64,000 nucleotides of DNA, taken from positions 19,915 through 83,914 of IMG/VR virus record IMGVR_UViG_3300050021_000500; one strand, 5' to 3'. Shown piece by piece: positions 2,602 through 47,637 of the stretch (position 1 is the stretch's first letter; every line of letters starts with the position of its first letter). The notes below the pieces were generated by a model that worked only from the letters and a program-made list of their open reading frames with translations, was not told where the DNA came from and made no database searches. Position numbers and translations under genes: made by a program. The DNA comes from a virus.

Positions 2602-2697
2602 CGGTTAAAGGGTTCGAGGTTTGGTGGCTTCAGGGTGCGCGCTCGTGATGCGCCGCCTGGCCCAACCGTCGCCGTGGGACGGCGCTGGCCCGGCTCT
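2602..2697 (+). repeat. Hairpin end element L1 (pair 1)
   Basis: CGGTTAAAG...GCCTGGCCCA ACCGT CGCCGT GGG ACGGCG C TGGCCCGGC TCT. Confidence 0.9.
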
Positions 2698-2718
2698 GAA
2701 GTCAGCTACCGGAGAGCC

Positions 2719-3024
2719 TTATTTGTTCTCGATGCGCTGTGCGATAGTGGCGGCAAAACCGCAGAGGCATGCCAGCCGCAAACCCAGGGCGGCGATTTTT
2801 TCTTCGATGGTGCTGAGTTCAGTTAGTTCGGGATCACCGGCTCTTGGCCCGAAGAGATTCGCGTGAATGGCGCACAGATGGCGTTCGAGTTCGCCGCTCC
2901 ACTTCAATGCCTCATCGGTCCTGGTGGTGAGACTGGCTTCTTTGAGCGGAGCCCGTGGGCCTTCCGCTGCGATCCGCGTCACCTGGGCAGGGGCGCGATT
3001 CGTGTTTTGCTGGTTGGGTCGCAT
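2719..3024 (-). CDS. Hypothetical protein, cargo of pair 1
   Basis: 101-aa ORF filling the interval between L1 and R1. Confidence 0.7.
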   Translation of the reverse strand: MRPNQQNTNRAPAQVTRIAAEGPRAPLKEASLTTRTDEALKWSGELERHLCAIHANLFGPRAGDPELTELSTIEEKIAALGLRLACLCGFAATIAQRIENK

Positions 3025-3039
3025 AAATCTGTTTTGACT

Positions 3040-3291
3040 TCAGAGCCGCTTCAGCGGCCGTAGGCCGACGGTTGAAGCGGCGGCGTGGAGCGAGCGCCTC
3101 GCACAAAAGGGCAGGACCCCGATAGCTTTAACCGGAGCGGAATTCAGGCCGTCTATTGGATCGCTCCATGCTTCATACACGCGATCTGAACCGACAGCGG
3201 AGGTTTCGAACTTCTCGCGCTTTACGGGACCATAGGCGCGAATGAAGCCGAGCGGGCGCCGCAACTCTCTGCCGTCGGGGCCAAGGATCAT
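3040..3291 (-). CDS. Hypothetical protein whose C-terminus is encoded by element R1
   Basis: ATGA overlap with the nusG-like gene; the stop codon lies at the inner edge of R1. Confidence 0.6.
   Translation of the reverse strand: MILGPDGRELRRPLGFIRAYGPVKREKFETSAVGSDRVYEAWSDPIDGLNSAPVKAIGVLPFCARRSLHAAASTVGLRPLKRL
3042..3134 (-). repeat. Hairpin end element R1 (pair 1)
   Basis: Minus strand: CGGTTAAAG...GCCGCTTCA ACCGT CGGCC TAC GGCCG C TGAAGCGGC TCT. Confidence 0.9.
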
Positions 3292-3788
3292 GCGACCTTC
3301 CGCTCAATCACTTGGATATCTTCAATTGCAACCCGAGTGCGAATTGACCGCTGGAACATCGTGACCGAAACCACCACAAGGGCCTCGCCTTTCATTTCGA
3401 TTACGTACCCTTCGAGGCCGACAAGCGGCCCACACCTGATTCTGATTTGTTCGCCGGCAGCCACATACGGGCAGGCGGTGACATCCGCTGTTGCGAATAG
3501 GGTCATGGTGCGAATCGCGTCGACCTCGGAGGTTGGGATGATCACCGGAGAATGGGCGCATCCCAAAATTGAGATAACCTGGGGAATTCGAATGACCGGG
3601 GTGCGCTCGGCCAGGTCGAAATTGGCGAACACGTACCCAGGAAAGAATTTGCGGGTGATGTCACGGCGCTTATCGCGCGACTTCGCCATCACGTGAGGGA
3701 AGAAGCTGTCGATGCGGGCCTCGGAGAGCCGGTCGACGACCTGGCCTTCGGTGTTGGAAGCGACGTGCAAGGCATACCACGGCAGCAT
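3288..3788 (-). CDS. NusG-family antitermination factor (specialised paralogue, UpxY/RfaH/LoaP-like)
   Basis: NGN domain WYALHV..FFPGYVF and KOW motif GEQIRIRCGPLVGLEG. Confidence 0.92.
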   Translation of the reverse strand: MLPWYALHVASNTEGQVVDRLSEARIDSFFPHVMAKSRDKRRDITRKFFPGYVFANFDLAERTPVIRIPQVISILGCAHSPVIIPTSEVDAIRTMTLFATADVTACPYVAAGEQIRIRCGPLVGLEGYVIEMKGEALVVVSVTMFQRSIRTRVAIEDIQVIERKVA

Positions 3789-3853
3789 CGAGACACACTC
3801 CGCGCCCTTACTTACTTTTTGGGGCTGCTAAAACCGGTCTAACGCCGGGCTGT

Positions 3854-4279
3854 TTACGCCGCTACGGGCGTCTGTAGAAGGCCGCCGGAGACGTCGCGCG
3901 AGCCGGTACGCTCGCTGGTGACGAAGCCGGTCTGTTTGTCCGCGGGGATCTCCGCGTCGAGCAGCTTGAATGGAATCGTGAGTTTCGAGAGCAGGCCATC
4001 GAGACCCATGGCTTTGCGTAGCAGCGCAAGCGCTTTGGGCCTGTTGGTTATTTCGCGCCGGAATTCGCGCGCCGTGAGATCGAGATAGTAGAGGCGCCCG
4101 GTGAGCCGTATCGGCAGGTTGGCCGGGCGGGTCTCACACTGCTGCTGGAGTTTGGCTTTGAGCTTCGCCAGTTCGTCCCGCTCGGGCTTCTGCTCGCGCT
4201 CTCTGGCCAAGAGGTAGGCACACCGATCGATGTCGCAAGCGGAGGGGGAATCGATAGCCGGAGCAGTTTTGGTAGCCAT
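3854..4279 (-). CDS. Hypothetical phage protein
   Basis: ORF in operon orientation with a coiled-coil N-half. Confidence 0.65.
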   Translation of the reverse strand: MATKTAPAIDSPSACDIDRCAYLLAREREQKPERDELAKLKAKLQQQCETRPANLPIRLTGRLYYLDLTAREFRREITNRPKALALLRKAMGLDGLLSKLTIPFKLLDAEIPADKQTGFVTSERTGSRDVSGGLLQTPVAA

Positions 4280-4390
4280 CAAAATCCATGGTGCCCTGGA
4301 TCCTTGGGCTTGCCAAGACTGAATTCCGTGCCAAATTAAACAAAAGCGGATATATTATAATCAGGTACTTAGGTATGTTTTGACCGTGAC

Positions 4391-4777
4391 ATGGTTTTTA
4401 ATCGCACAGAACGCCTAGTCTGCCGCGCACTGACAAACGGTCACAGCGCTACGGAAATTGCCGAGGATTTGGAAATGGCGGTTTCGAGCGTCGGCCGGCA
4501 CATGCGTAGTGCAATCCGCAAGGCGGCGTTGCACAGCCGATACGAACTCCTCGTGTTTTTGTTCCAATCGCCGGCCTCGCTGTCCAAGGGCGGCCGTTTC
4601 ATGCCGGGGCTCCACAATTCAGCGACTTGCGCGTGCCCCTGCTGCTGCTATATGAGGGCCACAAGCCTGTCCCCGGATGTGCCAACCGCGCGAGAACTCG
4701 TAACTCAGTTGAGGGATCCGATGGACTGGAAAGATCTACCACCAGCGGCTCCCCCACCGTCCGCCTCTCCAGACTAA
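4391..4777 (+). CDS. LuxR-type HTH regulator with Cys-rich tail
   Basis: FNRTERLVCRALTNGHSATEIAEDLEMAVSSVGRHMRSAIRK; CACPCC. Confidence 0.8.
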   Translation: MVFNRTERLVCRALTNGHSATEIAEDLEMAVSSVGRHMRSAIRKAALHSRYELLVFLFQSPASLSKGGRFMPGLHNSATCACPCCCYMRATSLSPDVPTARELVTQLRDPMDWKDLPPAAPPPSASPD

Positions 4778-4810
4778 CTCGTATTAGACTGAGGTAAGGA
4801 GAATCAACTT

Positions 4811-5212
4811 ATGGGCAGACTTGCCTTAGAACTACCAACACAGACACCAACCTTCCTGGTTGAGCGCTTCGAAAACGGATATTACCGCATTGGCGGGGTA
4901 TCCCTCCAGCAGATCCAGATCAACCTCAACGAGATGATGCAGACCGCGAGTGCCGCGCCCTCCGTGACGGGTGCGCCGCTGCCGGCTCTGAGACGCCAGC
5001 GACGCAAAACAATCACCGCAACTTTCACGCCCGCGCGCAAGCCACGCACGTTGAGCGCCGCCGGCAGGAAGAGGATCGCCGCTGCGCAAAAGGCGCGCTG
5101 GGCGAAGAAACGGGAAGCAGAAGCAATCGCAGGCGAGACTGCGCCGGTACCGACAGCGCAGAAACGGCACCGCGCCAAGCGGCAGCCGAAGACGATGACG
5201 GCCGCCGGATAA
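4811..5212 (+). CDS. Basic putative DNA-binding protein
   Basis: RTLSAAGRKRIAAAQKARWAKKR motif; AAGGAG RBS. Confidence 0.7.
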   Translation: MGRLALELPTQTPTFLVERFENGYYRIGGVSLQQIQINLNEMMQTASAAPSVTGAPLPALRRQRRKTITATFTPARKPRTLSAAGRKRIAAAQKARWAKKREAEAIAGETAPVPTAQKRHRAKRQPKTMTAAG

Positions 5213-5251
5213 CAAAACAAAAAACGGCGCCGTCCCGGACGAGGCGGCGCC
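5213..5251 (-). terminator. Intrinsic terminator between convergent genes
   Basis: GGCGCCGTC/GGCGGCGCC stem with a T-run on the minus strand. Confidence 0.6.
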
Positions 5252-5278
5252 ATAAGCCTGTTCAGCCAAAGGAGTGTT

Positions 5279-5614
5279 CTACGATTCCAAGGTTACCACC
5301 CCGGCCCCGTCACGCGCCCGCGTCGGTGCTACCTGCTGCATCTCGTAGTCACAGTAGTAATCGTACGGCGGCCGGTAGTCCGGGTCATCCTCCATCGCCT
5401 CCTGGACGTCATCCGGCGGGTCTTTGGGCACCTCGATGGCGCGGTGCGTCACCTGGCCGGCGTAGGTGATGTGCATATCGGTAACACTGGCTGACCACCC
5501 GTCGCAGTCTAAATAGGCTTCAATGACCTCGGCAGCAGCTTCCAACGCGGACTCCAGGGTCGGACAATCGACGTTGTCTCCCGCCGGATCTACAACAGTC
5601 CACGTATCGCTCAT
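5279..5614 (-). CDS. Acidic hypothetical protein
   Basis: ATGA overlap with the upstream gene; GGAGG RBS. Confidence 0.7.
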   Translation of the reverse strand: MSDTWTVVDPAGDNVDCPTLESALEAAAEVIEAYLDCDGWSASVTDMHITYAGQVTHRAIEVPKDPPDDVQEAMEDDPDYRPPYDYYCDYEMQQVAPTRARDGAGVVTLES

Positions 5615-5943
5615 CGCAGGACCTCCGCCACCGCACACCGAATGCAGTGTCGCGTCTCCGGTACCGCCTTTAACCGATTCTCCCTGATCGCCTTGCCACA
5701 TTCGATGCACTCGCCGTACGTCCCGTTATTTAGCCGCGCCAGAGCTTCCTCGACCATCGCCAGGCCCACTCCGGCGCACTCAATCTCTTTAGCGGTGTTA
5801 TCTCGCGCGTAGAGGTTAACCGCGCTCTCCTGCGATTCTGCCGTTCGTTCTACTTCGATGTGACCGCGCAAGTGGGCTAAGTGATTGAGCGCCTCGCCGC
5901 GCTTGGCTTCGAGACGGGATCGGGGGCTCGTATTATCTGGCAT
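5611..5943 (-). CDS. DksA/TraR family C4 zinc-finger protein
   Basis: EALARLNNGTYGECIECGKAIRENRLKAVPETRHCIRC. Confidence 0.9.
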   Translation of the reverse strand: MPDNTSPRSRLEAKRGEALNHLAHLRGHIEVERTAESQESAVNLYARDNTAKEIECAGVGLAMVEEALARLNNGTYGECIECGKAIRENRLKAVPETRHCIRCAVAEVLR

Positions 5944-6283
5944 CGGATTCTCCTCGGGCTTTTGCCATCGCCGGTGCGAAAGCAAATACGTGATGGGTCT
6001 TGCCCTCTTCGTCAATGACGGGTTGAGGGTTGAGCCGAAAGAGGCCGCCTCCGGCATAGTTGCAGGGGCCGGTGCCTTCTCCGAACGCCTGACGGCCGCC
6101 GGTCCACCGCCCGACGCATGAGAAGGCAGCTTCTCCTTCGGTGGCACCAGCGGCTTTCCAGTCGGACACCGAAGCAACGTGGTGGCAGACCGGACAGGCG
6201 AAGCGCCAGTTCAGCGGATCTGGGCCGAAGCGCCTTATGGCTTCGGTCCGCCATTCGACTACGGTCATCGGATCAAGCGGCAT
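5933..6283 (-). CDS. Cys-rich phage protein (VVA0879-like)
   Basis: RRFG.DPLNWRFACPVC..SCVGRW..CNYAGGGLFRLNP. Confidence 0.7.
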   Translation of the reverse strand: MPLDPMTVVEWRTEAIRRFGPDPLNWRFACPVCHHVASVSDWKAAGATEGEAAFSCVGRWTGGRQAFGEGTGPCNYAGGGLFRLNPQPVIDEEGKTHHVFAFAPAMAKARGESDAR

Positions 6284-6638
6284 CGGATTCTCCTCGTGCT
6301 TTCTTCGCGGCGGCCCGCAGCATGTCCCAGTCCGGAGGGGCACCATCGCCATCCACCATGTTGAGCGCAGCCATGACGGCGGCGTACAGATCCTGAGCCG
6401 CAACAATGAGGTGGGCGTCAGCCGGGTTGACGATGCCGCCTTCCGGGTAGTTGTAGTCCCGGTCGCAGGAGACTTCCACTACGTCAATTTCATCGGTCTC
6501 GCCATGAGTTCCGCTCGGGTAGGAGTATGGTATCTTGCCACCCGCCGCTATCCCGTAGTGAGTCGGCGCATCGAGCGCATCCCGATGCTCGGTGATGCGC
6601 CACGGTCCAGGTGTCCACTTCGGTGTCCTATTTGGCAT
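6273..6638 (-). CDS. Conserved phage early protein (TPGPW...A.LI.AA.DL type)
   Basis: KWTPGPW and ADAHLIVAAQDLY. Confidence 0.75.
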   Translation of the reverse strand: MPNRTPKWTPGPWRITEHRDALDAPTHYGIAAGGKIPYSYPSGTHGETDEIDVVEVSCDRDYNYPEGGIVNPADAHLIVAAQDLYAAVMAALNMVDGDGAPPDWDMLRAAAKKARGESDAA

Positions 6639-7278
6639 CAGTTTGTTCTCCTTGAATCGGTTCGTACCGGAACATGATGGTGTCGTAGGTGGCCTCAAGG
6701 TGAATTGGCTTTCCTGTCGTATTCAACCAGGAAGCGATTTTCAGATTGAGCATATTATCCGAATCGAGCAAGATGTTGATCTGCTTATCGTAGGGCAACC
6801 TGGTTTTCGGCTCCTTCTCCACCACGGCATCCTGCAGGTAGAGCAGGCATCCGCTGGCGCAGTAGTCGCATTCTTGAGTACCCCCCATGGAAGTCGTCTG
6901 GAATCCCATGAGCACGCCCGCGCCGCTTTCCAATGGCGTCGGCGGGTCACCCGGCAAGCTCTTGATCCAGGCCACCAGGTCACCCCGCAGCGCGAGGATG
7001 CGAACCCGATAGCCCGCCGGCGGGTAGAACGGGATTGGCAGCATGGCGGAGTCGGCATGGCCCCAGATGCAAGGGCCGACGCTGCAGGATACGTTCGCCA
7101 TCCGGGTATCCACCGGGCCGTAGAGATCCCGCGGGAAGTTTCCCGATGCGGTGTGTGTGTCGGCTCCTTGCGCCGAAGCTACCCGGGCGAGTAGCGCAAA
7201 GCCGATCACCAGAACAAGCCCCGGCCATCCTCCAGCCAGTGCTTTCAATGTAAGACAGATTTCTCGCTTGAGCATCAC
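6628..7278 (-). CDS. Putative exported protein
   Basis: Hydrophobic signal-like N-terminus ending ASA-Q. Confidence 0.7.
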   Translation of the reverse strand: MMLKREICLTLKALAGGWPGLVLVIGFALLARVASAQGADTHTASGNFPRDLYGPVDTRMANVSCSVGPCIWGHADSAMLPIPFYPPAGYRVRILALRGDLVAWIKSLPGDPPTPLESGAGVLMGFQTTSMGGTQECDYCASGCLLYLQDAVVEKEPKTRLPYDKQINILLDSDNMLNLKIASWLNTTGKPIHLEATYDTIMFRYEPIQGEQTDAK

Positions 7279-7841: not shown

Positions 7842-7844
7842 TGG

Positions 7845-10897: not shown

Positions 10898-11032
10898 ACG
10901 TTCCTTTCTGGCGGTTTAGAGCCCGCCACGGCTTTGTAAAATCTGTAGGCGAAAACGGGGCGCCGCGAACGGGGCCGCAGGGGCGCCGCAGTGCGATGGG
11001 GGAAGGAACCCGCGGCCTGACATTCACCCCTC

Positions 11033-15414: not shown

Positions 15415-15591
15415 ATGAGTTGGGAAGCATGGGGCAGCGATGAATCGGTCGATATCGACCAACTCTACAACCGGGGTTGGGAGTCGGATTCGGACTGCGA
15501 CAAATGGTGGAAGGCTGGAGAGCCAGAGACTGTATACACGATGGCTGAAGCTATCCAAGCCTACGAGGATTGGCTCTATGCCGAAGACTGA
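15415..15591 (+). CDS. Small acidic Trp-rich protein
   Basis: Short ORF rich in D/E/W. Confidence 0.55.
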   Translation: MSWEAWGSDESVDIDQLYNRGWESDSDCDKWWKAGEPETVYTMAEAIQAYEDWLYAED

Positions 15592-15644
15592 GCGGCGGCG
15601 AATTCCGTGGACTCAACCACAGCGTGTGGCGGCGGTTTAAAGCT

Positions 15645-16259
15645 ATGCGCGCCGCCGTCTATGCCCGCGTCTCCACCACCGATCAAACGTGCGCGCTCCA
15701 ACTCGCCGAGCTGCGAACTTACGTGCAGGCCCGCGGTTGGGATCTCGCCGGTGAGTACGTCGACACCGGCTGGTCTGGTGCCAAAGCATCCCGGCCGGAA
15801 TTGGACCGGCTCATGCGGGACGCGCGCAAGCGCAGCGTGGACTGCGTCCTGGTCTGGAAACTTGACCGGTGGGCGCGCTCCGTCTCCCACCTGGTGAGCA
15901 GCCTCGAGGAGTTGAAAGGCCTCGGCGTGCGTTGGATTGCCGCGACGCAGAATCTGGATACCGACGAGTCCAACCCTGTGGGCCGGCTCATGACGCACCT
16001 CTTGGGAGCGGTGGCGGAGTTCGAGCGGGAGATGATTCGCGAGCGCACCTTAGCGGGGCTGGCCTACGCGCGGTCCAAGGGTCGTGTGGGGGGCCGGCCG
16101 GCAAAAGTCTTCGACCGCCAGCGTGCCCGGGATATGCGCAGCCAGAATCCACCGGTGAGCTGGCGCACTATCGCCCGCGAGTTGGGGATACCTCAGTCCT
16201 CGATCCGGCAGGCGCTCGGGGGTGTGCGTAAAACCCCTCCGCAAAAACCGCGAAAGTGA
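15645..16259 (+). CDS. Small serine recombinase (resolvase/invertase family), second copy
   Basis: YARVST, VWKLDRWARS, AEFEREMIRER, GGRP, HTH. Confidence 0.95.
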   Translation: MRAAVYARVSTTDQTCALQLAELRTYVQARGWDLAGEYVDTGWSGAKASRPELDRLMRDARKRSVDCVLVWKLDRWARSVSHLVSSLEELKGLGVRWIAATQNLDTDESNPVGRLMTHLLGAVAEFEREMIRERTLAGLAYARSKGRVGGRPAKVFDRQRARDMRSQNPPVSWRTIARELGIPQSSIRQALGGVRKTPPQKPRK

Positions 16260-27601: not shown

Positions 27602-27930
27602 CGGAGAGAATGCCGGACGTATTTATTGGCGTTATAGACGATGTGAAACATGCAATCGCGTTCGCCCGGATGATCCAGCCGGCCTACCAGCGACAGCAAT
27701 GGAAATGGATTGCCGGCGGATTTAAGCGGGTTCCGACCGTCGCCGATATTGCCGAGACGATTGAGTTACTCGCTCGCGGAGTAGCCGATGGAGAAGCATT
27801 CGCTTCCACCGGAGGATTGACGGTGCGACGCGGAAATCGCCTCTATGTCAGTCCAGTGCTGAAGCCGGACAAACTGGTCTTCAGGCAGCGTGCGCAGAGG
27901 CTGTTGGCCAATGGGGAGACAACATCATGA
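27598..27930 (+). CDS. Hypothetical protein
   Basis: ATGA overlaps. Confidence 0.6.
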   Translation: MTERMPDVFIGVIDDVKHAIAFARMIQPAYQRQQWKWIAGGFKRVPTVADIAETIELLARGVADGEAFASTGGLTVRRGNRLYVSPVLKPDKLVFRQRAQRLLANGETTS

Positions 27931-28760
27931 CGGAGAAAATGTCGAAGGGTTCCGCGCGGAAGGGCGAGTTGCCCGCCCTCCCGCCAGCCCAACCGTCGCC
28001 CGCAAAGCCGGGCGCTGGGCCGGCTCTAGAGAATACCGTCCTGATCCTGCGTACATGCAGTGCCGACATGCTGAGCCACGGCGGCTTTCGGTGGCCGGAG
28101 AGCGGCCCAGTGGAGGTACCTGACTGGAATCCAAAGCATGTATGCGGCGGTGGCTTGCACGGTCTGCTGTGGGGTGAGGGCTCCGTCTCGTACCTCAATT
28201 TGGATGAGTTGGCCAAGTGGATCGTGTTCCGCGCCCAGATGGCCGATTTGGCGCATGGCACCGGCGAACTGATCGACAAGTGTAAGGCCCGCGCGGGAAC
28301 GGTGGAATACTGCGGATGTCGCGACGGGGCAATCAGCTACCTCATGGCCAATGGTGCCGCAGGAAAAGCGGTTGTCTTCGGCACGGCGACGGCGGGCGAC
28401 AGCGGCACGGCGACGGCGGGCTACAGCGGCGTGATTACCATCCTGTACTGGAATGACAAGCGCTATAAGGCTCGCATCGCGCAGGTCAAGGACGAAGACG
28501 GATACGGCGAGCTGGAGCCCAACACGCCGTATAGGCTGAACGTTCAAGGGAACTTTACCAGAGCCGATGCTGCGCCGCGCTCTGGCGGCGACGGTAGCAT
28601 CGGCGGCGTGGAGCGAGCGGGGACGGGCACGGTAGAACAGCCACGGAGCCTTTCTCCGTTGAATCCTACCGGGGATATTTTTATGATTGCTGACATCATC
28701 TTTGCATCTGGTTGGCTGGTAGTTGGACTGGCTCTAATTTTCAGGAGACGCCTGCGATGA
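27927..28760 (+). CDS. Phage protein with TATAG repeats, fused in frame to L2 and R2
   Basis: Core LRTC..SHGGFRWP.SG.VE.PDW..CGGGLHG.LWGEG; TATAG twice. Confidence 0.8.
   Translation: MTEKMSKGSARKGELPALPPAQPSPAKPGAGPALENTVLILRTCSADMLSHGGFRWPESGPVEVPDWNPKHVCGGGLHGLLWGEGSVSYLNLDELAKWIVFRAQMADLAHGTGELIDKCKARAGTVEYCGCRDGAISYLMANGAAGKAVVFGTATAGDSGTATAGYSGVITILYWNDKRYKARIAQVKDEDGYGELEPNTPYRLNVQGNFTRADAAPRSGGDGSIGGVERAGTGTVEQPRSLSPLNPTGDIFMIADIIFASGWLVVGLALIFRRRLR
27930..28027 (+). repeat. Hairpin end element L2 (pair 2)
   Basis: ACGGAGAAA...GCCAGCCCA ACCGT CGCCCG CAAAGC CGGGCG C TGGGCCGGC TCT. Confidence 0.9.
28560..28659 (-). repeat. Hairpin end element R2 (pair 2)
   Basis: Minus strand: ACGGAGAAA...GCCGATGCT ACCGT CGCCGC CAGAGC GCGGCG C AGCATCGGC TCT. 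Confidence 0.9.
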
Positions 28761-31237: not shown

Positions 31238-32116
31238 ATGACGACAGAAGAAGCTGTACAAGCGATCACGGTGGCGCTGGATCGCCGGTGCTGCCATCAG
31301 TGCCACGGCGCGGGGACGGTTAGCGTGATGGGTGGGCAGGTGTTCGAGACGGATTCGGATGAAGAGGCCCAACTGGCGTACCAAACTGTGGCTTGCCCGA
31401 CATGCATCAAGGTCCGAGCCGACGCTCTCGCCGCGCTGGAGGAGATGCGGAAGGACTCGGAGCAAACGGCAGAAGAGCCGACGCATATCTACCACGCTTG
31501 TGGCTATATCGATGAGGGCGGTCCTGGATTCCCTTGCACAAATTCTGTTGAGCTTGGGAAACATTGTGAAGGCCATACAGATCCGGCAGAGCAGAAGACC
31601 GCTAATGCCGACGCTGCCATCGAACAGGCCGAGGATGAGCATATACGACGATTTGGCGGCGAATGGGGAGATGAGCATACGGAAGATCGTAAGGCTTGGG
31701 CGGCACAGAGGGCTGGGGCCGCTTGCCAGTGCCCGGCGCGGATAGCGATCCGGTTATTTCTATCCGGGCTCGCGCCAGCCTCCCTTGGTAGACAGATGTA
31801 TTTTTTGAAAGATCGGACGGAACTTGAATCCGCCCTCTCCGCCCGCTGCCCATGCTGCGCGGAGCGGGATGAAGCGATCCACACGCGCAGCCTGGCTCAA
31901 GCGGCGAGCACGCGGGATCTGGAGGCGAAGCGGGCAGTGGAAGAAAAATTACGGCTTGCGCTGGACATAAATGACCTCCTGCGGGCGCGGGTGCCGTTGG
32001 AGCCTGGCGCGAACACAAATACGGCGCCGGTAAATCCGCTATTGGTGGGGACTAATGCGCCGAAAGCGTTAAAGCCGCAGGGCCTGGCGGGCATTGAGAG
32101 CGGAGGGAAAAGCTGA
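31238..32116 (+). CDS. Mosaic Cys-rich hypothetical protein
   Basis: CHQCHGAG..CPTC; GGAGG RBS. Confidence 0.65.
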   Translation: MTTEEAVQAITVALDRRCCHQCHGAGTVSVMGGQVFETDSDEEAQLAYQTVACPTCIKVRADALAALEEMRKDSEQTAEEPTHIYHACGYIDEGGPGFPCTNSVELGKHCEGHTDPAEQKTANADAAIEQAEDEHIRRFGGEWGDEHTEDRKAWAAQRAGAACQCPARIAIRLFLSGLAPASLGRQMYFLKDRTELESALSARCPCCAERDEAIHTRSLAQAASTRDLEAKRAVEEKLRLALDINDLLRARVPLEPGANTNTAPVNPLLVGTNAPKALKPQGLAGIESGGKS

Positions 32117-32805
32117 TGCCTGAGAAGTTGCTGAAGCCCCCCGCGCTGAGGAGCGACCCGCTCGCGATCCCGCCGGCCCAGCCGTCGTCCGCAAAGCCGG
32201 GCGCTGGACCGACTCTGAGCCATGAGGAGTTGCGGAAACGTGCAGTCCAGTGGTTGACCAATACCAAGCGCTGTGGCGTCGTCTTGTCGGAGATCGTTAC
32301 AGGTTGCTCCGAGATCCCCGACGCCATCGGGTGGCGCGGCCACACCTCCTACATTGTGGAATGCAAAACAAGCCGTTCCGACTTCCGTGCGAATAAAACC
32401 AAAATTCACGCGCGCTGTAACCGTGGCGTCGGACAGTTCCGCTACATCATGGTGCCGAGATGCCTGACGGATCAGGTATTGAAATCAGAAGCGCCGGTAC
32501 GGCCTGAAGACCTGGAAGGTTCGGACTACGGATTACTCTGGTGCTCGGCAGAATCCGGCACGGTTCGAGTGATGAAGGAAGCGACCGTGCGCGAACAATG
32601 CCAGGATGACGAGATCACGATGCTAGTGTCGGCATTGCGGCGCGTGCGCGCAAGAGAGTTCTTAATTCTTGTCCAAGAAACGCAGCAGGACTCCAGAGCC
32701 GATGCTGCGCCGCGTTCCGGCGGCGACGGTAGCATCGGCGGCGTGGAGAGAGCGCCCCGAACCACAGAGCAACCCGCCCCAGCACCTTCTCAGGAGAACG
32801 CTTAA
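32116..32805 (+). CDS. PD-(D/E)xK-fold phage protein fused in frame to L3 and R3
   Basis: EIPDAIGW..IVECKTSRSDF..G.G.FRY. Confidence 0.8.
   Translation: MPEKLLKPPALRSDPLAIPPAQPSSAKPGAGPTLSHEELRKRAVQWLTNTKRCGVVLSEIVTGCSEIPDAIGWRGHTSYIVECKTSRSDFRANKTKIHARCNRGVGQFRYIMVPRCLTDQVLKSEAPVRPEDLEGSDYGLLWCSAESGTVRVMKEATVREQCQDDEITMLVSALRRVRAREFLILVQETQQDSRADAAPRSGGDGSIGGVERAPRTTEQPAPAPSQENA
32119..32216 (+). repeat. Hairpin end element L3 (pair 3, slightly degenerate)
   Basis: CCTGAGAAG...GCCGGCCCA GCCGT CGTCCG CAAAGC CGGGCG C TGGACCGAC TCT. Confidence 0.85.
32695..32794 (-). repeat. Hairpin end element R3 (pair 3)
   Basis: Hairpin nearly identical to R2; outer end CCTGAGAAG matches L3. Confidence 0.9.
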
Positions 32806-35461: not shown

Positions 35462-35775
35462 CGCCCCAACAATTTGCCGACCGCATGAACCGGATGACGG
35501 GTGAGGAGATCGCCCAAGCGATGGAATCGCTGCCTACAGACGCGCTGGAGTGGGGTGTGAAGTTCGAGGCACTGGGCAACATGCCTGAAAAGCTGCCGAA
35601 GGGTTCCACGCTGAAACGTGACCCGTGCGTGATCCCGCCAGCCCAACCGTCGCCAGCAGAGCCCGGCGCTGGGCCGGCTCGGAAATACTGTAACTGCATC
35701 CACGGCACCGATGCCGGCCGGTACTGCGTGATCCGGCACGCTCCGTACTGCGCGCTCCATGGGGAGCACGCTTGA
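35458..35775 (+). CDS. Hypothetical protein reading through element L4
   Basis: Contains PEKLPKG..PPAQPSPAEPGAGPA. Confidence 0.6.
   Translation: MTPQQFADRMNRMTGEEIAQAMESLPTDALEWGVKFEALGNMPEKLPKGSTLKRDPCVIPPAQPSPAEPGAGPARKYCNCIHGTDAGRYCVIRHAPYCALHGEHA
35584..35681 (+). repeat. Hairpin end element L4 (pair 4)
   Basis: CCTGAAAAG...GCCAGCCCA ACCGT CGCCAGCAGAGCCCGGCG C TGGGCCGGC TCG. Confidence 0.88.
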
Positions 35776-37166
35776 GCTATCGGATCATCTGCGGTGACGC
35801 GCTGACAGTGCTGAAGACGATGCCCGAGGAAAGCGTGCAGTGCTGTGTGACGAGTCCGCCGTACTGGGGCCTCCGCGATTACGGCGTGGTCGGGCAACTT
35901 GGCTTGGAGCCCACCATCGAACTGTACATCGCCCATATCGTCGAGGTGTTCCGTGAAGTGCGGCGGGTGCTCAAGAACGATGCGACGCTCTGGCTGAACA
36001 TGGGGGATTCCTACTGCTCCGATGCCGGCGCCGATAGAAAACCCACCACGCTTGCCGGAGCCCGTGTCCCTTCTGGATGGACAAATAGAGCGCAGCCACA
36101 TCGGGTTCATGCACTCCGTAAGGGCAAAGATAAAGACCCGAAGCGCGGGGCGTCCGCCGACAGCGCCGTGATTTCTGCGGTAACCGGCCTAAAACCGAAA
36201 GACCTCTGCATGATCCCGGCGCGCGTCGCGTTGGCGCTGCAAGCGGATGGCTGGTGGCTCCGCTCAGAGATTGTGTGGCACAAGCCCAACCCGATGCCTG
36301 AGAGCATCCGGGATCGTCCGACCAAAAGCCACGAGATGCTCTACCTACTGTCGAAGAGCGAGAGGTACTTCTACGACGCGGACGCCATCAAGGAGCCGAC
36401 TACGGGCAGCGCCCACGATAGAGCGCGTAAGAACCGCGCCGCCGATGGGCAGAAGACGCTGCCGACAGCGGAACGAAACGGGGTGCGACCGGCATTTGAG
36501 CGCCTCGGACGCGAAGGCCTGAACAGTCGCATGCACCAAGACCGCGACGCCAATCATTCGAGCGAGCGGAAGGTCCGCGCGCCCGGCGTGAACCCGAAGG
36601 CGCAGAAGTGGCCCAACGCATGGAGTGCTGAAGACGGCCGCCACGATGGAATCGGCAACGGTCGTTTCCGCCCGAGCGGCAACAAAGAGCGCAAACTCGC
36701 GGGCCCGGCGAATGGACGCCTGGAGACGCACATGGGCAGCGGCGTGCCCTGGCCGCCGCAGATTCGTCCCAAGCAGAACGAATCATTTTCGGCAGCGGTA
36801 GTGCGAACAGTGGAGCGGCGCAACCGGCGCACCGTCTGGACCATCGCAACGAAGCCATTCAGCGGCGCCCACTTCGCCACCTTCCCACCGAAGCTGATCG
36901 AGCCCTGCATCCTGGCAGGCTCCCGGCCCGGTGACGTGGTGCTGGATCCGTTTGGGGGCGCGATGACCACGGCCCTGGTGGCGCAAGAGCATGGCAGGGA
37001 TTCAGTGATGATCGAATTGAAGCCCGAGTACGTGAAGATGGGCGACGCGCGACTCGCTGACGCCAGAGCCGGTTCAGCGCCGGTCCTCCGGCGACGGTTT
37101 GAACCCGGCGGTGTGGAGCAAGCGGACACGGGCGCGGCGAAGAAACCACGGAGCCTTTTTCAGTAA
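35772..37166 (+). CDS. Beta-class N4-C/N6-A DNA methyltransferase; C-terminus encoded by R4
   Basis: TSPPYWGLRDY, IVWHKPNPMPES, HFATFP, DPFGG. Confidence 0.92.
   Translation: MSYRIICGDALTVLKTMPEESVQCCVTSPPYWGLRDYGVVGQLGLEPTIELYIAHIVEVFREVRRVLKNDATLWLNMGDSYCSDAGADRKPTTLAGARVPSGWTNRAQPHRVHALRKGKDKDPKRGASADSAVISAVTGLKPKDLCMIPARVALALQADGWWLRSEIVWHKPNPMPESIRDRPTKSHEMLYLLSKSERYFYDADAIKEPTTGSAHDRARKNRAADGQKTLPTAERNGVRPAFERLGREGLNSRMHQDRDANHSSERKVRAPGVNPKAQKWPNAWSAEDGRHDGIGNGRFRPSGNKERKLAGPANGRLETHMGSGVPWPPQIRPKQNESFSAAVVRTVERRNRRTVWTIATKPFSGAHFATFPPKLIEPCILAGSRPGDVVLDPFGGAMTTALVAQEHGRDSVMIELKPEYVKMGDARLADARAGSAPVLRRRFEPGGVEQADTGAAKKPRSLFQ
37065..37164 (-). repeat. Hairpin end element R4 (pair 4)
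   Basis: Minus strand: ACTGAAAAA...GCCGGGTTCAA ACCGT CGCCGG AGGA CCGGCG C TGAACCGGC TCT. Confidence 0.88.
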
Positions 37167-37214
37167 ATGGCCGCGCGCCCAGCGGGGAATGGGCGGAAGG
37201 AAGGATGACAAATC

Positions 37215-37439
37215 ATGAAAACGCGATGCAAGTTTCAGGTTGAAAAGGTCACGAAGTACAGTGGAGACTTTGAGCAAATCACGCTCAACGCCGTATATGG
37301 GGGATCGGCCGAAAATGTGAGCTTTGCTCAAGCCACGCCAACGGGGAAACTGGAAATCACGGTCAATAACCCGGCGGTAGTTGGGCAGATCACACCAGGG
37401 CAGTACTATTATCTGGATCTGATTCCAGCGGAAGCATAG
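37215..37439 (+). CDS. Conserved small phage protein
   Basis: RCKF..LNAV..EN..F..ATP.G.LEITVNNP..GQYYYLD. Confidence 0.8.
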   Translation: MKTRCKFQVEKVTKYSGDFEQITLNAVYGGSAENVSFAQATPTGKLEITVNNPAVVGQITPGQYYYLDLIPAEA

Positions 37440-37560
37440 CGGGCCCCGAATCTTTCAACGTTGAGTCCAAAGAACAGAGATTCTTTGGGCAAATAAATCG
37501 AATTCAGCCGCATCGCCTTGGCGGACAATAAAGGCAGCAATCGGTGAAGGAGAACAGACA

Positions 37561-43078: not shown

Positions 43079-46000
43079 TCACATTGCTAACGTAGCGTGA
43101 TCGAATTCCCAATTTCCGCCGAAGCCGACGAAACTGATGATGGAGGTAGAGTTCGCGGCGGAGTTGGTCGCCGCATCAACCAGCGGTCCAAACAACACGC
43201 CAGTGCCCCAGGTCACCGCCCACCCTCCGGTGCCATCCTGTTTGATGCGGGCCTTCCAGATCCACCCATCGGAAGGCGTGCCAGGGGAACTGATGGTCGT
43301 AGCAGCCGTGAGCGTCTGGTTGGTAGTGAGGACAACGGCTGGAGTTGCCGATGACGGCAACGGGCCAAATAAAACCCTATCGTAGGCGGCAGCAGACCAA
43401 GCGCCGGTTTGCAGAACCGACTTCCCGTTTGCCGGCACCCAGTCTGCCGTCGAGGTGGCGTTTCGGTTCATCACATAGAACCGGTACTGCATGTAAACGT
43501 AGGTGGTCCCGGTATTGTAATCGAACTCCAACGGGTCAGTGGACCGTGCCATGCCCGCGCTCACGGTATCGCCTATAGGATCGTTGGGACCGTAGAACAC
43601 TACCTCAGTACCACCCATGTTAGATGGCGCGGGCGTCCCACTTGCGTCGGTGCATTGCACCGTGATGCGGGTAAATGATGCGTTCACATCCGTGGGGTCG
43701 GTCCATGTGACTCCAGGAATGCGAACAAAATGCGAACCATCTGCCCGCGTCACATCATAAGGATTTGGACCGCTTACGCCAGCAGCAATAGTCGCCGTGG
43801 TAACGCACGTCGCAGAGGGAAGCCCAAGTCCGCCCACGCTGAACGCCGAAGATGCCGTAGCACCCAACCCCACCAAATCAGACGCAGAGTACAGCCGGTT
43901 TGGATCTCCCAGGATGGCTCCGGTCATGCAGTACGCGTACCAATTGGTCGTTGTCGCCGGGACAAGCCGCATGAAAGGGAAAGACTGGCTGGCACCCACC
44001 ATGACGTTCCACCCGACGCCCTGATACTTGGTTGGGTCGGTAGCCAGGGGGAGCCAGAAGGTGACGTTCTGCGGAACCTGGTTTCCATTGAGCGTGGGCG
44101 CAATGTTGATCTGCGTGGAGAGCAGACGCGTGATCGGGTCGGCTACGCGATTGGTGGGATAGTCGGCGGCGGCGACGGCGGTCACTGCCGACGCCTCAAC
44201 CGTTACGGTCGCTGTATAAGGCGAGGCAGTGGGCGCCCCGTACTCATTCAGGCAGGTAAACCGCAGCGTCCAGCCGACAGCCGTTCTCCCCTGCGGAAAC
44301 TGTATCGTCCCGCCGTCGTAGCTGGCATACGTCGCACCGAACGAGGAGCGCGGGACAGACACTATGGGGGTCCAGCTTGTGCCCCCCGTGATCTGCGCGT
44401 CGATCTGAATCGACGCAAGGTGGGAGTAGTTGGGATCAGATGTCGGCAGCGTAATCGCGTTCACCCCAACGAAGCCAAACGACGAATCATTGCCGTTCAT
44501 CCCGTAGGCCGCGGTCGCTGTAGCCGCGGTGACGTTGGGCGCCGCTGCATTGGTCAGGATGGCAGGGCCAAAAAGCAGGCGTAAATATGCGGCACCGCCC
44601 CAAGCGGTGGTCTCCAGGACTGATTTACCGGCAGACGGGTTCCAGTCCGCAGTATTCGTAGCGTTGCGGTTCATGTAGTAGAACCGGTACTGCATGTAGG
44701 TGTACGTTGAGCCGACAGGGTTATAGTCGAACTCCAAAATGTCAGTCGCACGCGCCGCCCCAGGGCTTACCACGTCCCCGAGCGCGTCCAGCGGGCCATA
44801 GAACGGCACTTCCGTTCCGCCCTGTCCGGAAGGAGCCGGGCTGCCACCCGAGTCCACACACTGCACGGTGATTCGCATGAAGGAAGCGTTCGGGTCCGTG
44901 GTGTCGGTCCAGGTGACGCCGGGGATGCGAACATAGTGCGAACCGTCTGGGCGCATTTGGTCGTAGGGGTTTGCTCCTCCGACCCCGGCGGCGATAGCGG
45001 CGGTGGTGACCGCATTTGCGGCCGGCAGGCCCAAGCCCGATATCGAAATACCGGATGAAACCACGGAGCCGGGGTAAAGTGTGGCCAAATTGGCCGACGT
45101 GACCGCGACAGACGGTGAGCCGACAGCACCGGAGCAGGCGGCAATCTTCCACGTCTGCGCGGGGCCGGGGACAAGCCGGGCAAATTGGATCTGCTGACCA
45201 ACCGTGTCCATGCGCGCCCATCCGCACCACGTGTACGTCGCTCCATTGTCGGTGCTGAGAAGATAGGTGACGTTCTGCGGTACCTGGCCACCGTTGAGGA
45301 TTGGGATGAACCCTACCGTCAAGCTGAGGAGTCGCGTCGCGGCATTCACCGGATCGATATATCGCGTCCCGACTTCCACCGCCGATGTGAAACCGCTGAC
45401 AGCGGATGCCTCTACCGTGACGCTCACGGTGATTGGGGAATCGGTTGGTGAGCCTGCCGCATTCAGCGCGGTGAACCGGACCGTCCAGGAAGAGGACGCC
45501 CGCGTCTGCGGAAACTCAAATACTGGGCCAGTATAGTCCACGTAACTGCCGCCAAACGATGCCTGCGGAATAGTTACGACATTTGTCCATCCCGTCGCCC
45601 CATTCAATTGCGCATCCACCTGCACCGCTGCCAGATAGGAGTAGTGAGGGTCCGCTGTGGGAAGGATGATGCGCCCGGCGAAACCGAAAGACGAATCGTT
45701 TGCCCACATGCCGTAAGAGGCCGCTGCGGTTGTGCCCGAGACGGTAATATTCGGTGCGGCAGCCAGAACGGCAGGGCCGAACGAAAGTCGCAAATAGGCC
45801 GCACTGCTCCAGGCCGTCGTTTGCAGCACGGACTTCCCGGAGACGGACCAATCGGCTGTGGAGGTGGCATTCCGGTTCATGACGTAGAACCGGTACTGCA
45901 TGTACGTGTAGGTAGAACCGACGGGGTTGTAGTCGAATTCCAACGGGTTGGTGGCGCGCGCCATGCCCGCGCTCACGGTATCGCCGATGGGATCGTTGGG

Positions 46001-47053
46001 GCCGAAGAACGGAACCTCGGTACCGCCTTGGTCTGCCGGCGCGGCAACTCCCGAGGAGTCCACGCATTGCACCGTGATCCGCGTGAACGAAGCGTTCGGG
46101 TCCGTGGGATCCGTCCAGGTGACTCCAGGGATGCGGACAAAATGCGAACCATCGGCGCGAATCACGTCGTAGGGATTCGCGCCGCCCACTCCGGCCGCGA
46201 TGGCCGCTGTGGTGACGCACGAAGCGGAGGGTAGCCCCAGCCCCGCAACGGTTCCGCCGGCGCCCGATCCAGTGATGCTCCCGCCCACGGCACCCAGCGC
46301 GGTCAACTCCGCCGCGGTATAGAGATGGTTGGGATCGCCGACAAGCGCCCCCGTCGCGCAGTAAACCGACCATGCCGTGTCGGCAGCGGGTACCAGGCGG
46401 ACAGCGGAGAACGTCTGCCCCACCGTCGTCATCTTGTCCCAGCCGACGCCTTGGTACTTGGTTGGATCCGTGGCCAACGGGAAGAACGAGGTCACGTTCT
46501 GCGGGACCTGCCCACCATTCAGCACCGGCACGTAGGTAATCAACGTGGAGACCAGCCGGGTGATAGGATCGGCAGTGCGGGTGCCCGTGTCCGTGCCTGC
46601 GACGCTCGTCACGGCAGACGCTTGCACCGTCACGCTCACGGTGACCGGCGAGGCGGTCGCGGAGCCGAGTTCATTCACCGCGAGAAACTGCAATTCCCAA
46701 TAAGCGATGGCGCGGGTCTGCTCAAATTCTCCGCTGCCAATGTCCGAACCGGATGAATAGGTCACCGTACTCAGGCCGAATGACGCGCGCGGCACTGTCA
46801 CCACCGGAGCCCACCCGGTAGTCCCCACGATCCGTGCATTGATCTGGATGGAGTCCAGGTGCGCGTAATCCGGGTCGGTAGTCGGGAGTGTGATCGTTCC
46901 CGCAAGTCCGAACACGCTGTCGTTCGCCCACATGCCGTAGGTGGCCGCGGCGGTGGCGCTGGTGATGTTGGGGGCGGCAGGGCCGGCCGGAGGCGTACTC
47001 CCTCCGCTGACGCCGGCGATTCCCCCTCCCGCGAGTTGGATCCAGGTTGGCAT
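43079..47053 (-). CDS. Large tail protein with three ~405-aa internal repeats
   Basis: Repeats start AAPN(I/V)T..YGM..NDS.FG; C-terminal IKQDGTGGWAVTW. Confidence 0.8.
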   Translation of the reverse strand: MPTWIQLAGGGIAGVSGGSTPPAGPAAPNITSATAAATYGMWANDSVFGLAGTITLPTTDPDYAHLDSIQINARIVGTTGWAPVVTVPRASFGLSTVTYSSGSDIGSGEFEQTRAIAYWELQFLAVNELGSATASPVTVSVTVQASAVTSVAGTDTGTRTADPITRLVSTLITYVPVLNGGQVPQNVTSFFPLATDPTKYQGVGWDKMTTVGQTFSAVRLVPAADTAWSVYCATGALVGDPNHLYTAAELTALGAVGGSITGSGAGGTVAGLGLPSASCVTTAAIAAGVGGANPYDVIRADGSHFVRIPGVTWTDPTDPNASFTRITVQCVDSSGVAAPADQGGTEVPFFGPNDPIGDTVSAGMARATNPLEFDYNPVGSTYTYMQYRFYVMNRNATSTADWSVSGKSVLQTTAWSSAAYLRLSFGPAVLAAAPNITVSGTTAAASYGMWANDSSFGFAGRIILPTADPHYSYLAAVQVDAQLNGATGWTNVVTIPQASFGGSYVDYTGPVFEFPQTRASSSWTVRFTALNAAGSPTDSPITVSVTVEASAVSGFTSAVEVGTRYIDPVNAATRLLSLTVGFIPILNGGQVPQNVTYLLSTDNGATYTWCGWARMDTVGQQIQFARLVPGPAQTWKIAACSGAVGSPSVAVTSANLATLYPGSVVSSGISISGLGLPAANAVTTAAIAAGVGGANPYDQMRPDGSHYVRIPGVTWTDTTDPNASFMRITVQCVDSGGSPAPSGQGGTEVPFYGPLDALGDVVSPGAARATDILEFDYNPVGSTYTYMQYRFYYMNRNATNTADWNPSAGKSVLETTAWGGAAYLRLLFGPAILTNAAAPNVTAATATAAYGMNGNDSSFGFVGVNAITLPTSDPNYSHLASIQIDAQITGGTSWTPIVSVPRSSFGATYASYDGGTIQFPQGRTAVGWTLRFTCLNEYGAPTASPYTATVTVEASAVTAVAAADYPTNRVADPITRLLSTQINIAPTLNGNQVPQNVTFWLPLATDPTKYQGVGWNVMVGASQSFPFMRLVPATTTNWYAYCMTGAILGDPNRLYSASDLVGLGATASSAFSVGGLGLPSATCVTTATIAAGVSGPNPYDVTRADGSHFVRIPGVTWTDPTDVNASFTRITVQCTDASGTPAPSNMGGTEVVFYGPNDPIGDTVSAGMARSTDPLEFDYNTGTTYVYMQYRFYVMNRNATSTADWVPANGKSVLQTGAWSAAAYDRVLFGPLPSSATPAVVLTTNQTLTAATTISSPGTPSDGWIWKARIKQDGTGGWAVTWGTGVLFGPLVDAATNSAANSTSIISFVGFGGNWEFDHATLAM

Positions 47054-47087
47054 TTAATTGGGTATTCAGTTGGCGATGAAGATTGAA

Positions 47088-47186
47088 ACGGTTAAAGGCT
47101 TCGAGGCTTGTGGGCCTGAGTGCGGAGGGCTCGTGATCCTGCCGCCGGGGCCAACCGTCGCCGCAGGACGGCGCTGGCCCGGCTCT
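47088..47186 (+). repeat. Hairpin end element L5 (pair 5)
   Basis: ACGGTTAAAG...GCCGGGGCCA ACCGT CGCCG CAGGA CGGCG C TGGCCCGGC TCT; close to L1. Confidence 0.9.
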
Positions 47187-47210
47187 AAAGGTGTAAACTG
47201 GGATTGTTAT

Positions 47211-47283
47211 TGCGGATTGGCGCAGAGGCAGCGCGGGAGGCTCATAACCTTCAGGTCATCGGTTCGACCGATATCCGCTACCA
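47211..47283 (+). tRNA. tRNA with CAT anticodon (Met/fMet-like), atypical 5-nt T loop
   Basis: Acceptor tGCGGAT/ATCCGCt, D stem GCGC/GCGC, anticodon arm GGAGG-CTCATAA-CCTTC, T arm ATCGG-TTCGA-CCGAT, ACCA end. Confidence 0.85.
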
Positions 47284-47303
47284 AGATCCCACCCACACGA
47301 TGA

Positions 47304-47506
47304 GGGGGGAGTGGAAAGCCCAACGTAGTCAGGGAATTCAGGAATCGACGGGCATGGTTAGTAGCGGGGCCGGTTGTGAGTGAATACCCCGCGAAACAAA
47401 CCTGAAGCCATCGCAGTAAACCGGCCGATCCGGGTAGATGGTGACAGCGGTTGACCGTAATGAACTCAACGGCCTGTAGGTCCTAAGTTGGGATACTGCT
47501 CTCCCC
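47304..47506 (+). ncRNA. Putative ~200-nt structured RNA
   Basis: Nested pairings GGGGGGAGTGG/CTGCTCTCCCC, CCCAAC/GTTGGG, CAGG/CCTG, GGCCGGTT/AACCGGCC. G-U pairs favour the + strand. Confidence 0.6.
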
Positions 47507-47540
47507 GCCCCTCCGATCTCCCGCACCCGCATTTGACCTC

Positions 47541-47637
47541 AGAGCCGCTTCAGCGGGCCGTCTTCGGCCTGACGGTTGAAGCGGCGGGAACCCAAAGCGG
47601 GCCGCCCTTTCAGCGCGTCTCCCGCCAACTTCTCAGG
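47541..47637 (-). repeat. Hairpin end element R5 (pair 5)
   Basis: Minus strand: CCTGAGAAGTTG...GCCGCTTCA ACCGT CAGGCCG AAGA CGGCCCG C TGAAGCGGC TCT. Confidence 0.9.

Follow-up and report, generated by a model that had tools for sequence, protein, structure and literature searches.

Few sequence signals are known that direct the entry and exit of accessory genes in mosaic phage genomes, and the PeSLs of T4-like phages are the main example. In integrons, attC sites are imperfect hairpins read by structure; their stems vary and covary, a few bases are extrahelical, the motif at the base is conserved and exchange takes place at the stem base. An integron cassette has a single attC, in direct orientation, with the IntI integrase encoded beside attI. 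The ends of IS200/IS605 elements are subterminal imperfect hairpins, both on one strand, used as single-stranded DNA by a Y1 HUH transposase. PeSLs are stem-loop repeats that flank non-essential genes and lie at points of insertion, deletion or replacement (PMC2839356, PMC4122927); they combine a sigma-70-like promoter with a terminator, stand in direct orientation and give rise to mini-circles (PMC2839356). The dif modules of Acinetobacter plasmids are bounded by inversely oriented XerC/XerD sites, alternate with other modules and leave hybrid sites after exchange (PMC13141974); their cargo is diverse and includes toxin-antitoxin-like genes, and the enzyme acts in trans (PMC13141974, PMC6449649). 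Among bacterial REP elements, one superfamily has a CGTC tag, a stem of 8-9 bp starting with A-T, a loop of 4-5 nt and a CCA tail (PMC3733652). The present study concerns a structured element of about 100 nt that occurs in facing pairs, each enclosing different genes, in a 64,000-nucleotide stretch of viral DNA (bases 19915-83914 of an 83,914-bp IMG/VR virus record; hereafter, the window).

Ten copies of the element lie in the window (Table 1), all within 1 nt of the positions given in an earlier note on this DNA. Scored with a covariance model trained on 13 copies, they reach 64-95 bits (E 5e-13 to 5e-20), and the next-best match in the whole record (designated G000; linear, estimated to be 85% complete, 60.7% G+C) is at 17 bits (E 0.04). 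All five pairs face as ...GGCTCT-cargo-AGAGCC..., with the variants GACTCT in L3 and GGCTCG in L4, as that note had described them. The 19.9 kb of G000 upstream of the window add three copies, the facing pair 0 and the solo S7, bringing the total to 13, that is, six facing pairs and one solo (L0-L5 denote forward and R0-R5 reverse copies; coordinates are those of the window unless marked G000 or with another contig). S7 occupies a divergent intergenic region of ~600 bp, in forward orientation relative to the downstream + strand genes, a position that can be described as that of an operon leader. No partner of S7 was found by a relaxed motif-and-fold scan or by the model with its filters off, and the latter search found none for the other solo copies of the family. 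A weak match to the model at 62610-62711 (+ strand; 17.1 bits, E ~0.04-0.08) falls within a - strand gene and is probably due to chance.

Further members of the family were sought in IMG/VR with two pattern scans (109 and 88 stretches) followed by the covariance model. Counting G000 and its relatives, only six contigs proved true by the model. G001 (76.6 kb) holds eight copies, four of them in two facing pairs and four solo, G004 (5.8 kb) one pair and G005 (31.8 kb) one solo; G002 (11.9 kb) is ~90% identical to G000 3975-16259, and G003 (6.6 kb) 99% identical to G000 11103-17021. There are 24 distinct copies overall, the S7 copies of G002 and G003 being left out. Pairing, claimed previously for the window, is the rule in the family, 18 of the 24 copies making up nine facing pairs, all inverted. 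G005 has no tblastx match to G001 and only faint ones to G000. All element-bearing contigs come from peat and have 58-61% G+C. Of 21 public runs listed, 20 hold the segment 27800-37300; the runs belong to 19 studies, every one carries the label peat metagenome, and two may be source samples.

Each copy measures 94-105 nt and consists of two parts, an outer half of ~45 nt and an inner hairpin of ~50 nt. The outer half opens with a tip motif, most commonly CCTGAGAAGG (with CGGTTAAAG and ACGGAGAAA as variants), followed by ~35 variable bases and a loosely conserved box (GC-TCG...). The idea that the outer half forms a hairpin of its own was rejected: when 13 outer halves were folded as DNA, z scores ran from -1.1 to +1.9, five of the 13 folding worse than ~95% of shuffles. 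The inner half is a long irregular hairpin. Its base, CCGCC, is invariant and contributes the GCC that pairs with the GGC of the foot. Next come a 5-6 bp stem of free sequence and the invariant A-CCGTC, of which ACC and T are unpaired on the 5' arm, then a distal part made of a second stem and loop, a GC, the return strand and the foot, which is GGCTCT in 20 of 24 copies (GACTCT in two, GGCTCG and GGCTCA in one each). CCGCC, CCGTC and the foot are invariant or nearly so. The earlier note drew the conserved bases as an ACCGT/C internal loop; their conservation stands, and the structure is better drawn with two bulges on the 5' arm, ACC (3 nt) and T.

Covariation of the stems, part of the same proposal, was borne out. 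In a MAFFT alignment of 13 copies, compensatory changes occur at eight of the 14 predicted pairs. In the alignment of all 24 copies, which was fitted to the covariance model and to that extent favours structure, 96.7% of stem cells are paired against 77.5% in shuffles (a level reached by none of 500), and 59 cells are changed on both sides against 16.9. When the partner was shifted by 1-3 columns, no more than 39% of cells remained paired and no more than 11 were doubly changed. These figures show that the hairpin structure is under selection while the stem sequence is free. Free, covarying stems together with fixed bulges point to recognition of the folded strand and not of duplex sequence. 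Non-standard cells (T-G, three; C-A and A-C, seven; others, four) favour neither strand as the folded one. This lack of strand preference among wobble-type cells, and the fact that the invariant features are kept equally in copies transcribed forward and as the reverse complement, suggest a role in DNA rather than RNA. So does the inverted layout, which presents the same folded strand at both ends, as in transposon ends or paired recombination sites.

The two parts of the element are uncoupled. Over all 276 pairs of copies, hairpin identity and outer identity correlate at r = 0.13; of 14 pairs with hairpins at least 85% identical, eight have an outer identity of 0.47 or less (family median, 0.42). 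R2 and R3 are at 0.96 in the hairpin and 0.44 in the outer half, the outer half of R2 matching that of R4 at 0.74; for R0 and R5 the values are 0.96 and 0.29. R2/R3 and R0/R5, like L1/L5, set the same hairpin beside different cargo. In a contig of run X3, the L5 hairpin is joined to a different outer half and a different cargo. Mosaics are also found across sides: the R4 hairpin is 81% like those of L0 and L5, and the R4 outer half resembles that of R2. A strict division into left (A) and right (B) hairpin types could not be kept, as the R4 hairpin groups with those of L0 and L5. Within cassettes, the outer halves of L and R are 27-65% identical and the hairpins 56-81% (inner-half matrix, columns 57-117). 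The outer 9-mers are identical in pairs 1, 2 and 3, close in pairs 0 and 4 and mismatched in pair 5; three exact matches out of six is a level reached by 24 of 720 permutations, modest evidence that both ends of a cassette may interact or have a common history.

If the elements bound cassettes, relatives should differ in cargo at the element ends, and they do. G002, a relative lacking the sixth cassette, aligns to G000 up to G000 5305 and again from G000 7394, with ~18 bp where G000 has 2,089 bp comprising L0, cargo and R0. Where the upstream gene stops, this empty site carries a tip-like CCTGAGAAC; its tip-like motifs occur in reversed order and may or may not be a footprint. G004 carries cassette 3. 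The unit 32163..32743 (+), made up of both hairpins and the cargo, is 99.7% identical in G004 over 585 bp; the identity begins and ends just outside the hairpins, and outer halves and flanks are not alignable to G000. Since a methyltransferase homologue, 35-47% identical, lies 2-3 kb downstream of cassette 3 in both contigs, G004 is a diverged, syntenic phage and has recently either received or donated this cassette. Around cassette 3, two left contexts and two right ones occur in all four possible combinations (protein cluster members P0121, P0001, P0122 and P0124). In the X3 variant contig, a 297-bp block (37155..37451, +) that abuts the tip of R4 and holds an open reading frame (ORF) of 74 aa is missing; the joint runs from 37154 to 37452 (shorter side, 86 nt; 4 nt in common), and a 10-mer resembling the outer motif follows the block at 37452.

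In G001, a perfect 37-bp direct repeat (66643-66679 and 69089-69125) flanks a two-cassette block of 2.4 kb, L66704-R69067, that starts with a forward element, ends with a reverse one and encloses a complete cassette. The repeat looks like a long duplication at insertion. Overall, the junctions lie at the tip or at one of the two bases of the hairpin, the outer one (immediately ahead of CCGCC) or the inner one (the foot), and none is inside a stem. Two other joints, from 28026 to 28586 (21 nt on the shorter side) and from 47053 to 47571 (30 nt), were set aside as too short and probably involve other element copies. The comparisons show cassettes that are present in some relatives and absent from others and that move between phage genomes. 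Both as a structure and as a place of genome flux, the family has good support.

We tentatively interpret the elements as DNA-level boundaries of exchangeable gene cassettes, recognised as folded hairpins, an interpretation whose chances we put a little short of even. The element would be bipartite, its unstructured outer half staying with the genomic context and its bulged hairpin with the cargo. Inverted ends would present the same folded strand on both sides, as a symmetric recombinase or transposase would see it. A structure-specific enzyme, supplied in trans by phage or host, might recognise the extruded or single-stranded hairpin, and strand exchange might take place at the hairpin base; backbone and cargo would then act as alternating modules, like the dif modules of Acinetobacter plasmids. 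A more specific scheme, conceivable though doubtful, is a hairpin-guided exchange system of phages in which the enzyme, possibly encoded by the host, recognises the bulged DNA hairpin on opposite strands and swaps at its base. Entire genes, some lacking a start and stop of their own, would thereby be plugged in frame into the operons of unrelated phages that share a host.

Several observations weigh against cassette boundaries of this kind. The empty site of G002 does not have the form of a clean excision, as ~19 nt differ. Ordinary crossing-over inside the shared 585 bp suffices for the four combinations of contexts around cassette 3. No target-site duplication of 8 nt or more was found at any of 11 blocks tested, among them the G000 and G004 cassettes; as the exact ends are uncertain, the result covers longer duplications only. 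The position of junctions at hairpin bases could reflect selection against broken stems and not site-specific cleavage. Junctions of excised circles or inverted segments, which the earlier note proposed to look for, are absent from the listed contig joints of four runs (contigs, not reads). The carriers have no recombinase in common: a Resolvase domain is found in G000 only, a tyrosine integrase in G001 only, and neither in the fragments or G005. Finally, six of the 24 copies are solo. That note had proposed cassettes or exchange sites serviced in trans, of a REPIN-like or HUH type. Cassette boundaries serviced in trans are supported by pairing, by cargo differences between relatives, by covariation and by the lack of an Rfam match. 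The identification with HUH, REPIN or IS200/IS605 systems is not supported: no Y1_Tnp gene was found in five records, no bacterial copy was confirmed and the ends are inverted.

The six G000 cargos are mutually unrelated by both blastn and tblastx, in agreement with what had been noticed for the five in the window. The surrounding genes are on the + strand at pairs 2-4 and on the - strand at pairs 0, 1 and 5; the genes enclosed by pairs 2-4 are also on the + strand, which corrects the orientation given before. An ATG directly precedes the tips of L2 (27927), L3 and L4 (35581), sharing bases with the upstream stop at L2 and L3. In all three pairs the frame is open through L, cargo and R, with no stop of the cargo's own before R; the methyltransferase ORF of cargo 4 reads through R4 and stops at its outer end. 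Two L copies of G001 show the same layout of ATG and open frame, and three G001 ORFs are open through elements. At R0, the stop codon of the upstream gene sits in the outer motif. A short Cys/His-rich ORF, ending at 35775, precedes the cargo 4 methyltransferase. Directly after R2, a 25-codon ORF (28684-28760, +) with a good Shine-Dalgarno sequence encodes a hydrophobic peptide; it is in frame with the read-through ORF of cargo 2.

Such read-through might mean that translated L and R sequences give unrelated cargo proteins common N- and C-terminal peptides, for instance for packaging or export. The open frames in cargos 2, 3 and 4 and in the three G001 ORFs, the ATG at the outer edge, a Shine-Dalgarno sequence and ATG inside L of G004 in the same frame, and the missing cargo stops all agree with protein tags, an idea that is disfavoured and highly improbable. 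Read-through does not look selected at the protein level, because L2, L3 and L4 have no excess of third-position substitutions (L3 and L4 differ at 9, 6 and 9 sites in codon positions 1, 2 and 3) and because frames vary between copies: R1 is read in another frame, with its stop at the foot, and G001 L66704 has a shifted frame. Cargo 3 relatives, of ~150-170 aa, cover about two thirds of the 229-aa ORF and lack both tails, that is, the ~25 aa that L3 adds at the N end and the 33 aa that R3 adds at the C end. An independent gene inside pair 1, a tRNA in pair 5 and stem covariation, which is a nucleic-acid signal, also speak against tags.

The main rival, in our view rather doubtful, holds that the elements are regulatory hairpin modules (terminators, stabilisers, processing sites or loading sites for a NusG-like factor) shuffled passively, like T4 PeSLs, by homologous or microhomology recombination between co-infecting phages. 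PeSLs are indeed repeated, flank non-essential genes and mediate indels and replacements (PMC2839356, PMC4122927). The elements lie exactly on gene boundaries (a stop codon at R0, an ATG at L2, L3, L4 and two G001 copies), and S7 stands in a divergent intergenic region, forward to the downstream genes. A sigma factor and a NusG-like protein are encoded next to pair 1 in G000, and G005 also has a NusG-like gene; G001, with no NusG match, does not fit. Recombinant end combinations need only crossovers in shared sequence, and selection against broken stems alone could place the junctions at hairpin bases. Against these points, no sigma-70-type promoter or T-tailed terminator is found inside the elements; a consensus scan of 27000-38000 yielded three promoters against 2.8 in shuffled sequence and nine terminators against 10.1, other promoter types being outside the scan. 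The distance from box to CCGTC varies from 17 to 21 nt, which also ruled out these two blocks as the -35 and -10 of a promoter. In each pair one element is transcribed as the reverse complement with bulge and foot unchanged. The invariant blocks shared by the copies, only 5-9 nt, are short for homologous recombination, and the elements are inverted where PeSLs are in direct orientation and yield mini-circles.

Two other explanations also invoke an enzyme. Non-autonomous transposons with terminal inverted repeats, resembling MITEs or mobile insertion cassettes and carrying passengers, would be cut at the outer tips (CCTGAGAAGG or CGGTTAAAG) by a transposase from elsewhere. Inverted ends, a conserved tip motif, tips matched within pairs, the loss of the whole L0-cargo-R0 unit from G002, the tip-like CCTGAGAAC at the same stop codon of the empty site and the two tip-like 10-mers bounding the 297-bp block by R4 would all be accounted for. 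The best-documented transferred unit, cassette 3, excludes tips and outer halves, however, and the outer halves of one cassette are poorly matched (27-65%); with no transposase family found, no direct repeat of at least 8 nt and no copy confirmed in a bacterial genome, we regard such transposons as unlikely. Inversion of the L-R segment by the G000 serine recombinases, as Gin and Cin invert tail-fibre segments of phages, would draw on two Resolvase-domain genes in the window, one with HTH_7, and on inverted sites, and a crossover at mid-element would yield exactly the observed mosaics of outer and inner parts. It is nonetheless very unlikely. G001, with its eight copies, and G005 have no Resolvase gene, no strand-changing joint is seen among the listed joints of the four runs, the L and R hairpins of a pair differ strongly (56-81% identity), and inversion would break the read-through ORFs of pairs 2-4.

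Set beside the described systems, the elements come closest to the dif module in layout, to attC in site design and to the PeSL in biology. As with dif modules, there are facing pairs (nine) and an uncoupling of outer halves from hairpins, an analogy only: pdif sites are short double-stranded XerC-spacer-XerD sites of plasmids, whereas the present element is a phage sequence of ~100 nt, rich in G+C, with a covarying bulged hairpin. With attC it shares a hairpin defined by structure, free stems and conserved unpaired bases; the resemblance is one of design, since the pairs are inverted and there is no IntI context, a Phage_integrase match being present only in G001. Like PeSLs, the elements flank dispensable genes and mark indels and replacements between relatives; unlike them, they form inverted pairs and, in the stretch scanned, contain no sigma-70 promoter or terminator consensus. 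Small structured palindromic repeats, often in inverted doublets and with a conserved unpaired tag, are also typical of REP, BIME and REPIN sequences (PMC3733652). REPs, however, measure 20-40 bp, occur in high copy in bacterial chromosomes and enclose no cargo, and the present elements are found in phages only, with no RAYT in the five records searched. CCGTC recalls the tag of the CGTC superfamily; the bulged, G+C-rich stems, the ~50-nt length of the hairpin and the foot GGCTCT do not fit it. IS200/IS605 elements differ in that all nine pairs here are inverted, with no Y1_Tnp or OrfB_IS605 gene in five records, and serine invertase/resolvase systems in that a cognate recombinase is not found in every carrier (PF00239 in G000 only).

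By these comparisons the elements are not REP/RAYT, IS200/IS605, integron or PeSL sequences, nor members of any Rfam family. Rfam searches returned only tRNA at gathering scores and seven matches at E<=5, none of them on an element, in line with the earlier expectation that no described family would match. No description of the family was found in Rfam or in the literature searched; it is previously undescribed and a variant of repeat-bounded gene cassettes. Among representative bacterial and archaeal genomes (one per species, ~185,600 species), 22 stretches matched the pattern and none was confirmed by the model, though the genome-scan pattern catches 10 of the 24 known copies and rare copies could escape. 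Megablast of 26000-38500 gave no match to GenBank phages. Elements are absent from 81 viral and 80 metagenome loci with relatives of neighbouring backbone proteins, namely the 343-aa protein of 34344-35375 (80 viral, 80 metagenome; none close, at most 68% identical) and a 292-aa protein (one locus, sharing only a 287-bp patch). They are likewise absent from 54 viral loci with cargo 3 homologues.

A structured element thus bounds at least nine cassettes in several unrelated peat phages, and among what they carry are a tRNA and genes for DNA methyltransferases, HTH regulators and a nuclease-like protein. Should an enzyme read the hairpin, the family would represent a new recombination system and possibly a tool for site-defined gene insertion. 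If there is none, the family would be a clean natural case of portable homology shaping phage mosaicism. In either case, the covariance model is a search handle for such cassettes in metagenomes.

Table 1. Element copies, cargos and candidate enzyme or regulatory genes of the record, in window coordinates unless marked G000
Feature	Position	Strand	Remarks
L0	G000 5317-5413	+	pair 0
R0	G000 7283-7381	-	pair 0; enclosed cargo 1,869 bp
S7	G000 15916-16020	+	solo
L1	2601..2697	+	pair 1; 84.7 bits
R1	3042..3135	-	pair 1; 79.3 bits; outer 9-mer identical to that of L1
L2	27930..28027	+	pair 2; 88.2 bits
R2	28560..28659	-	pair 2; 94.6 bits; mosaic
L3	32119..32216	+	pair 3; 76.7 bits
R3	32695..32794	-	pair 3; 90.7 bits
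L4	35584..35681	+	pair 4; 78.9 bits; foot GGCTCG
R4	37065..37164	-	pair 4; 80.8 bits
L5	47088..47186	+	pair 5; 82.6 bits; 35 nt from start of 1324-aa - strand gene
R5	47541..47637	-	pair 5; 64.4 bits; 2 nt from stop of 1523-aa gene
Cargo 0			inside pair 0; HTH_17 protein, HTH_37/XRE protein, ORFs of unknown function
Cargo 1	2719..3024	-	101-aa ORF wholly inside pair 1, own start and stop; no family match
Cargo 2 ORF	27927..28760	+	phrog_18079, weak DUF7666; homology begins directly after L2; ORF continues through R2
Cargo 3 ORF	32116..32805	+	phrog_631, weak Hjc-like match; 229 aa
Cargo 4 methyltransferase	35772..37166	+	N6/N4 DNA methyltransferase; PF01555 E 4e-47, phrog_67
Cargo 5	47211..47283	+	tRNA-Met (anticodon CAT), antisense to flanking tail genes
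Small serine recombinase 1	808..1374	-	Resolvase domain and HTH_7
Small serine recombinase 2	15570..16259	+	Resolvase domain
HNH_3 endonuclease	25921-26613	+	
NusG-like factor	3288..3788	-	PF02357 E 1e-16; adjoins pair 1, just upstream
ParB_N protein	23-556		

Enzyme genes were searched for in five records (G000, G001, G002, G004 and G005), which are 5-85% complete. Y1_Tnp (PF01797) had no match at E<=1 in any of the five (a control search was positive in 10 of 14 named genomes), and DEDD_Tnp_IS110 and OrfB_IS605 (TnpB-type, PF01385) none either. The statement that no transposase or integrase is visible in the window has to be amended, for it contains two small serine recombinases; PF00239 has these two matches in G000 and none in the other four records. 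They are candidates for the trans-acting enzyme, but their link to the elements is unproven because they are missing from the other carrier contigs. A tyrosine integrase (PF00589) was matched in G001 alone (58943-59410), and no element lies closer to it than ~4 kb. Pfam and PHROGs searches of 40 further G000 ORFs were mostly blank. With incomplete records and no family assigned to the majority of ORFs, a novel enzyme hidden among the unmatched ORFs, or a host enzyme, is possible.

Next to pair 1 lies a regulatory cluster (808-2303 and 3288-3788, -) made up of the first serine recombinase, a small ORF, an ECF-like sigma factor and the NusG-like factor. Just upstream of the second serine recombinase, a 131-aa ORF with no family (15010-15405, +) is the non-structural gene best shared by G000 and G001 (52% identity over 113 aa, tblastx). 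Besides the N6/N4 methyltransferase of cassette 4, the backbone has the HNH_3 endonuclease and a D12-class methyltransferase-like ORF at 16193-17362 (-). At 19864-19913 (-) there is a sub-threshold match to Rfam Hammerhead_1 (E 0.58), its 22.7 bits falling short of the gathering score, 34.

Two large genes of the window are internally repetitive. The 1324-aa gene (43079-47053) contains three tandem units of ~1,206 bp at 43439-46573 (-), 66-81% identical, and encodes an internally triplicated tail-fibre-like protein. The 1207-aa gene (53654-57277, -) holds tandem 42-bp units at 54363-54614. Copies of the unit start at 54363, 54405, 54447, 54489 and 54531, and the 84-nt windows at the three middle starts are identical.

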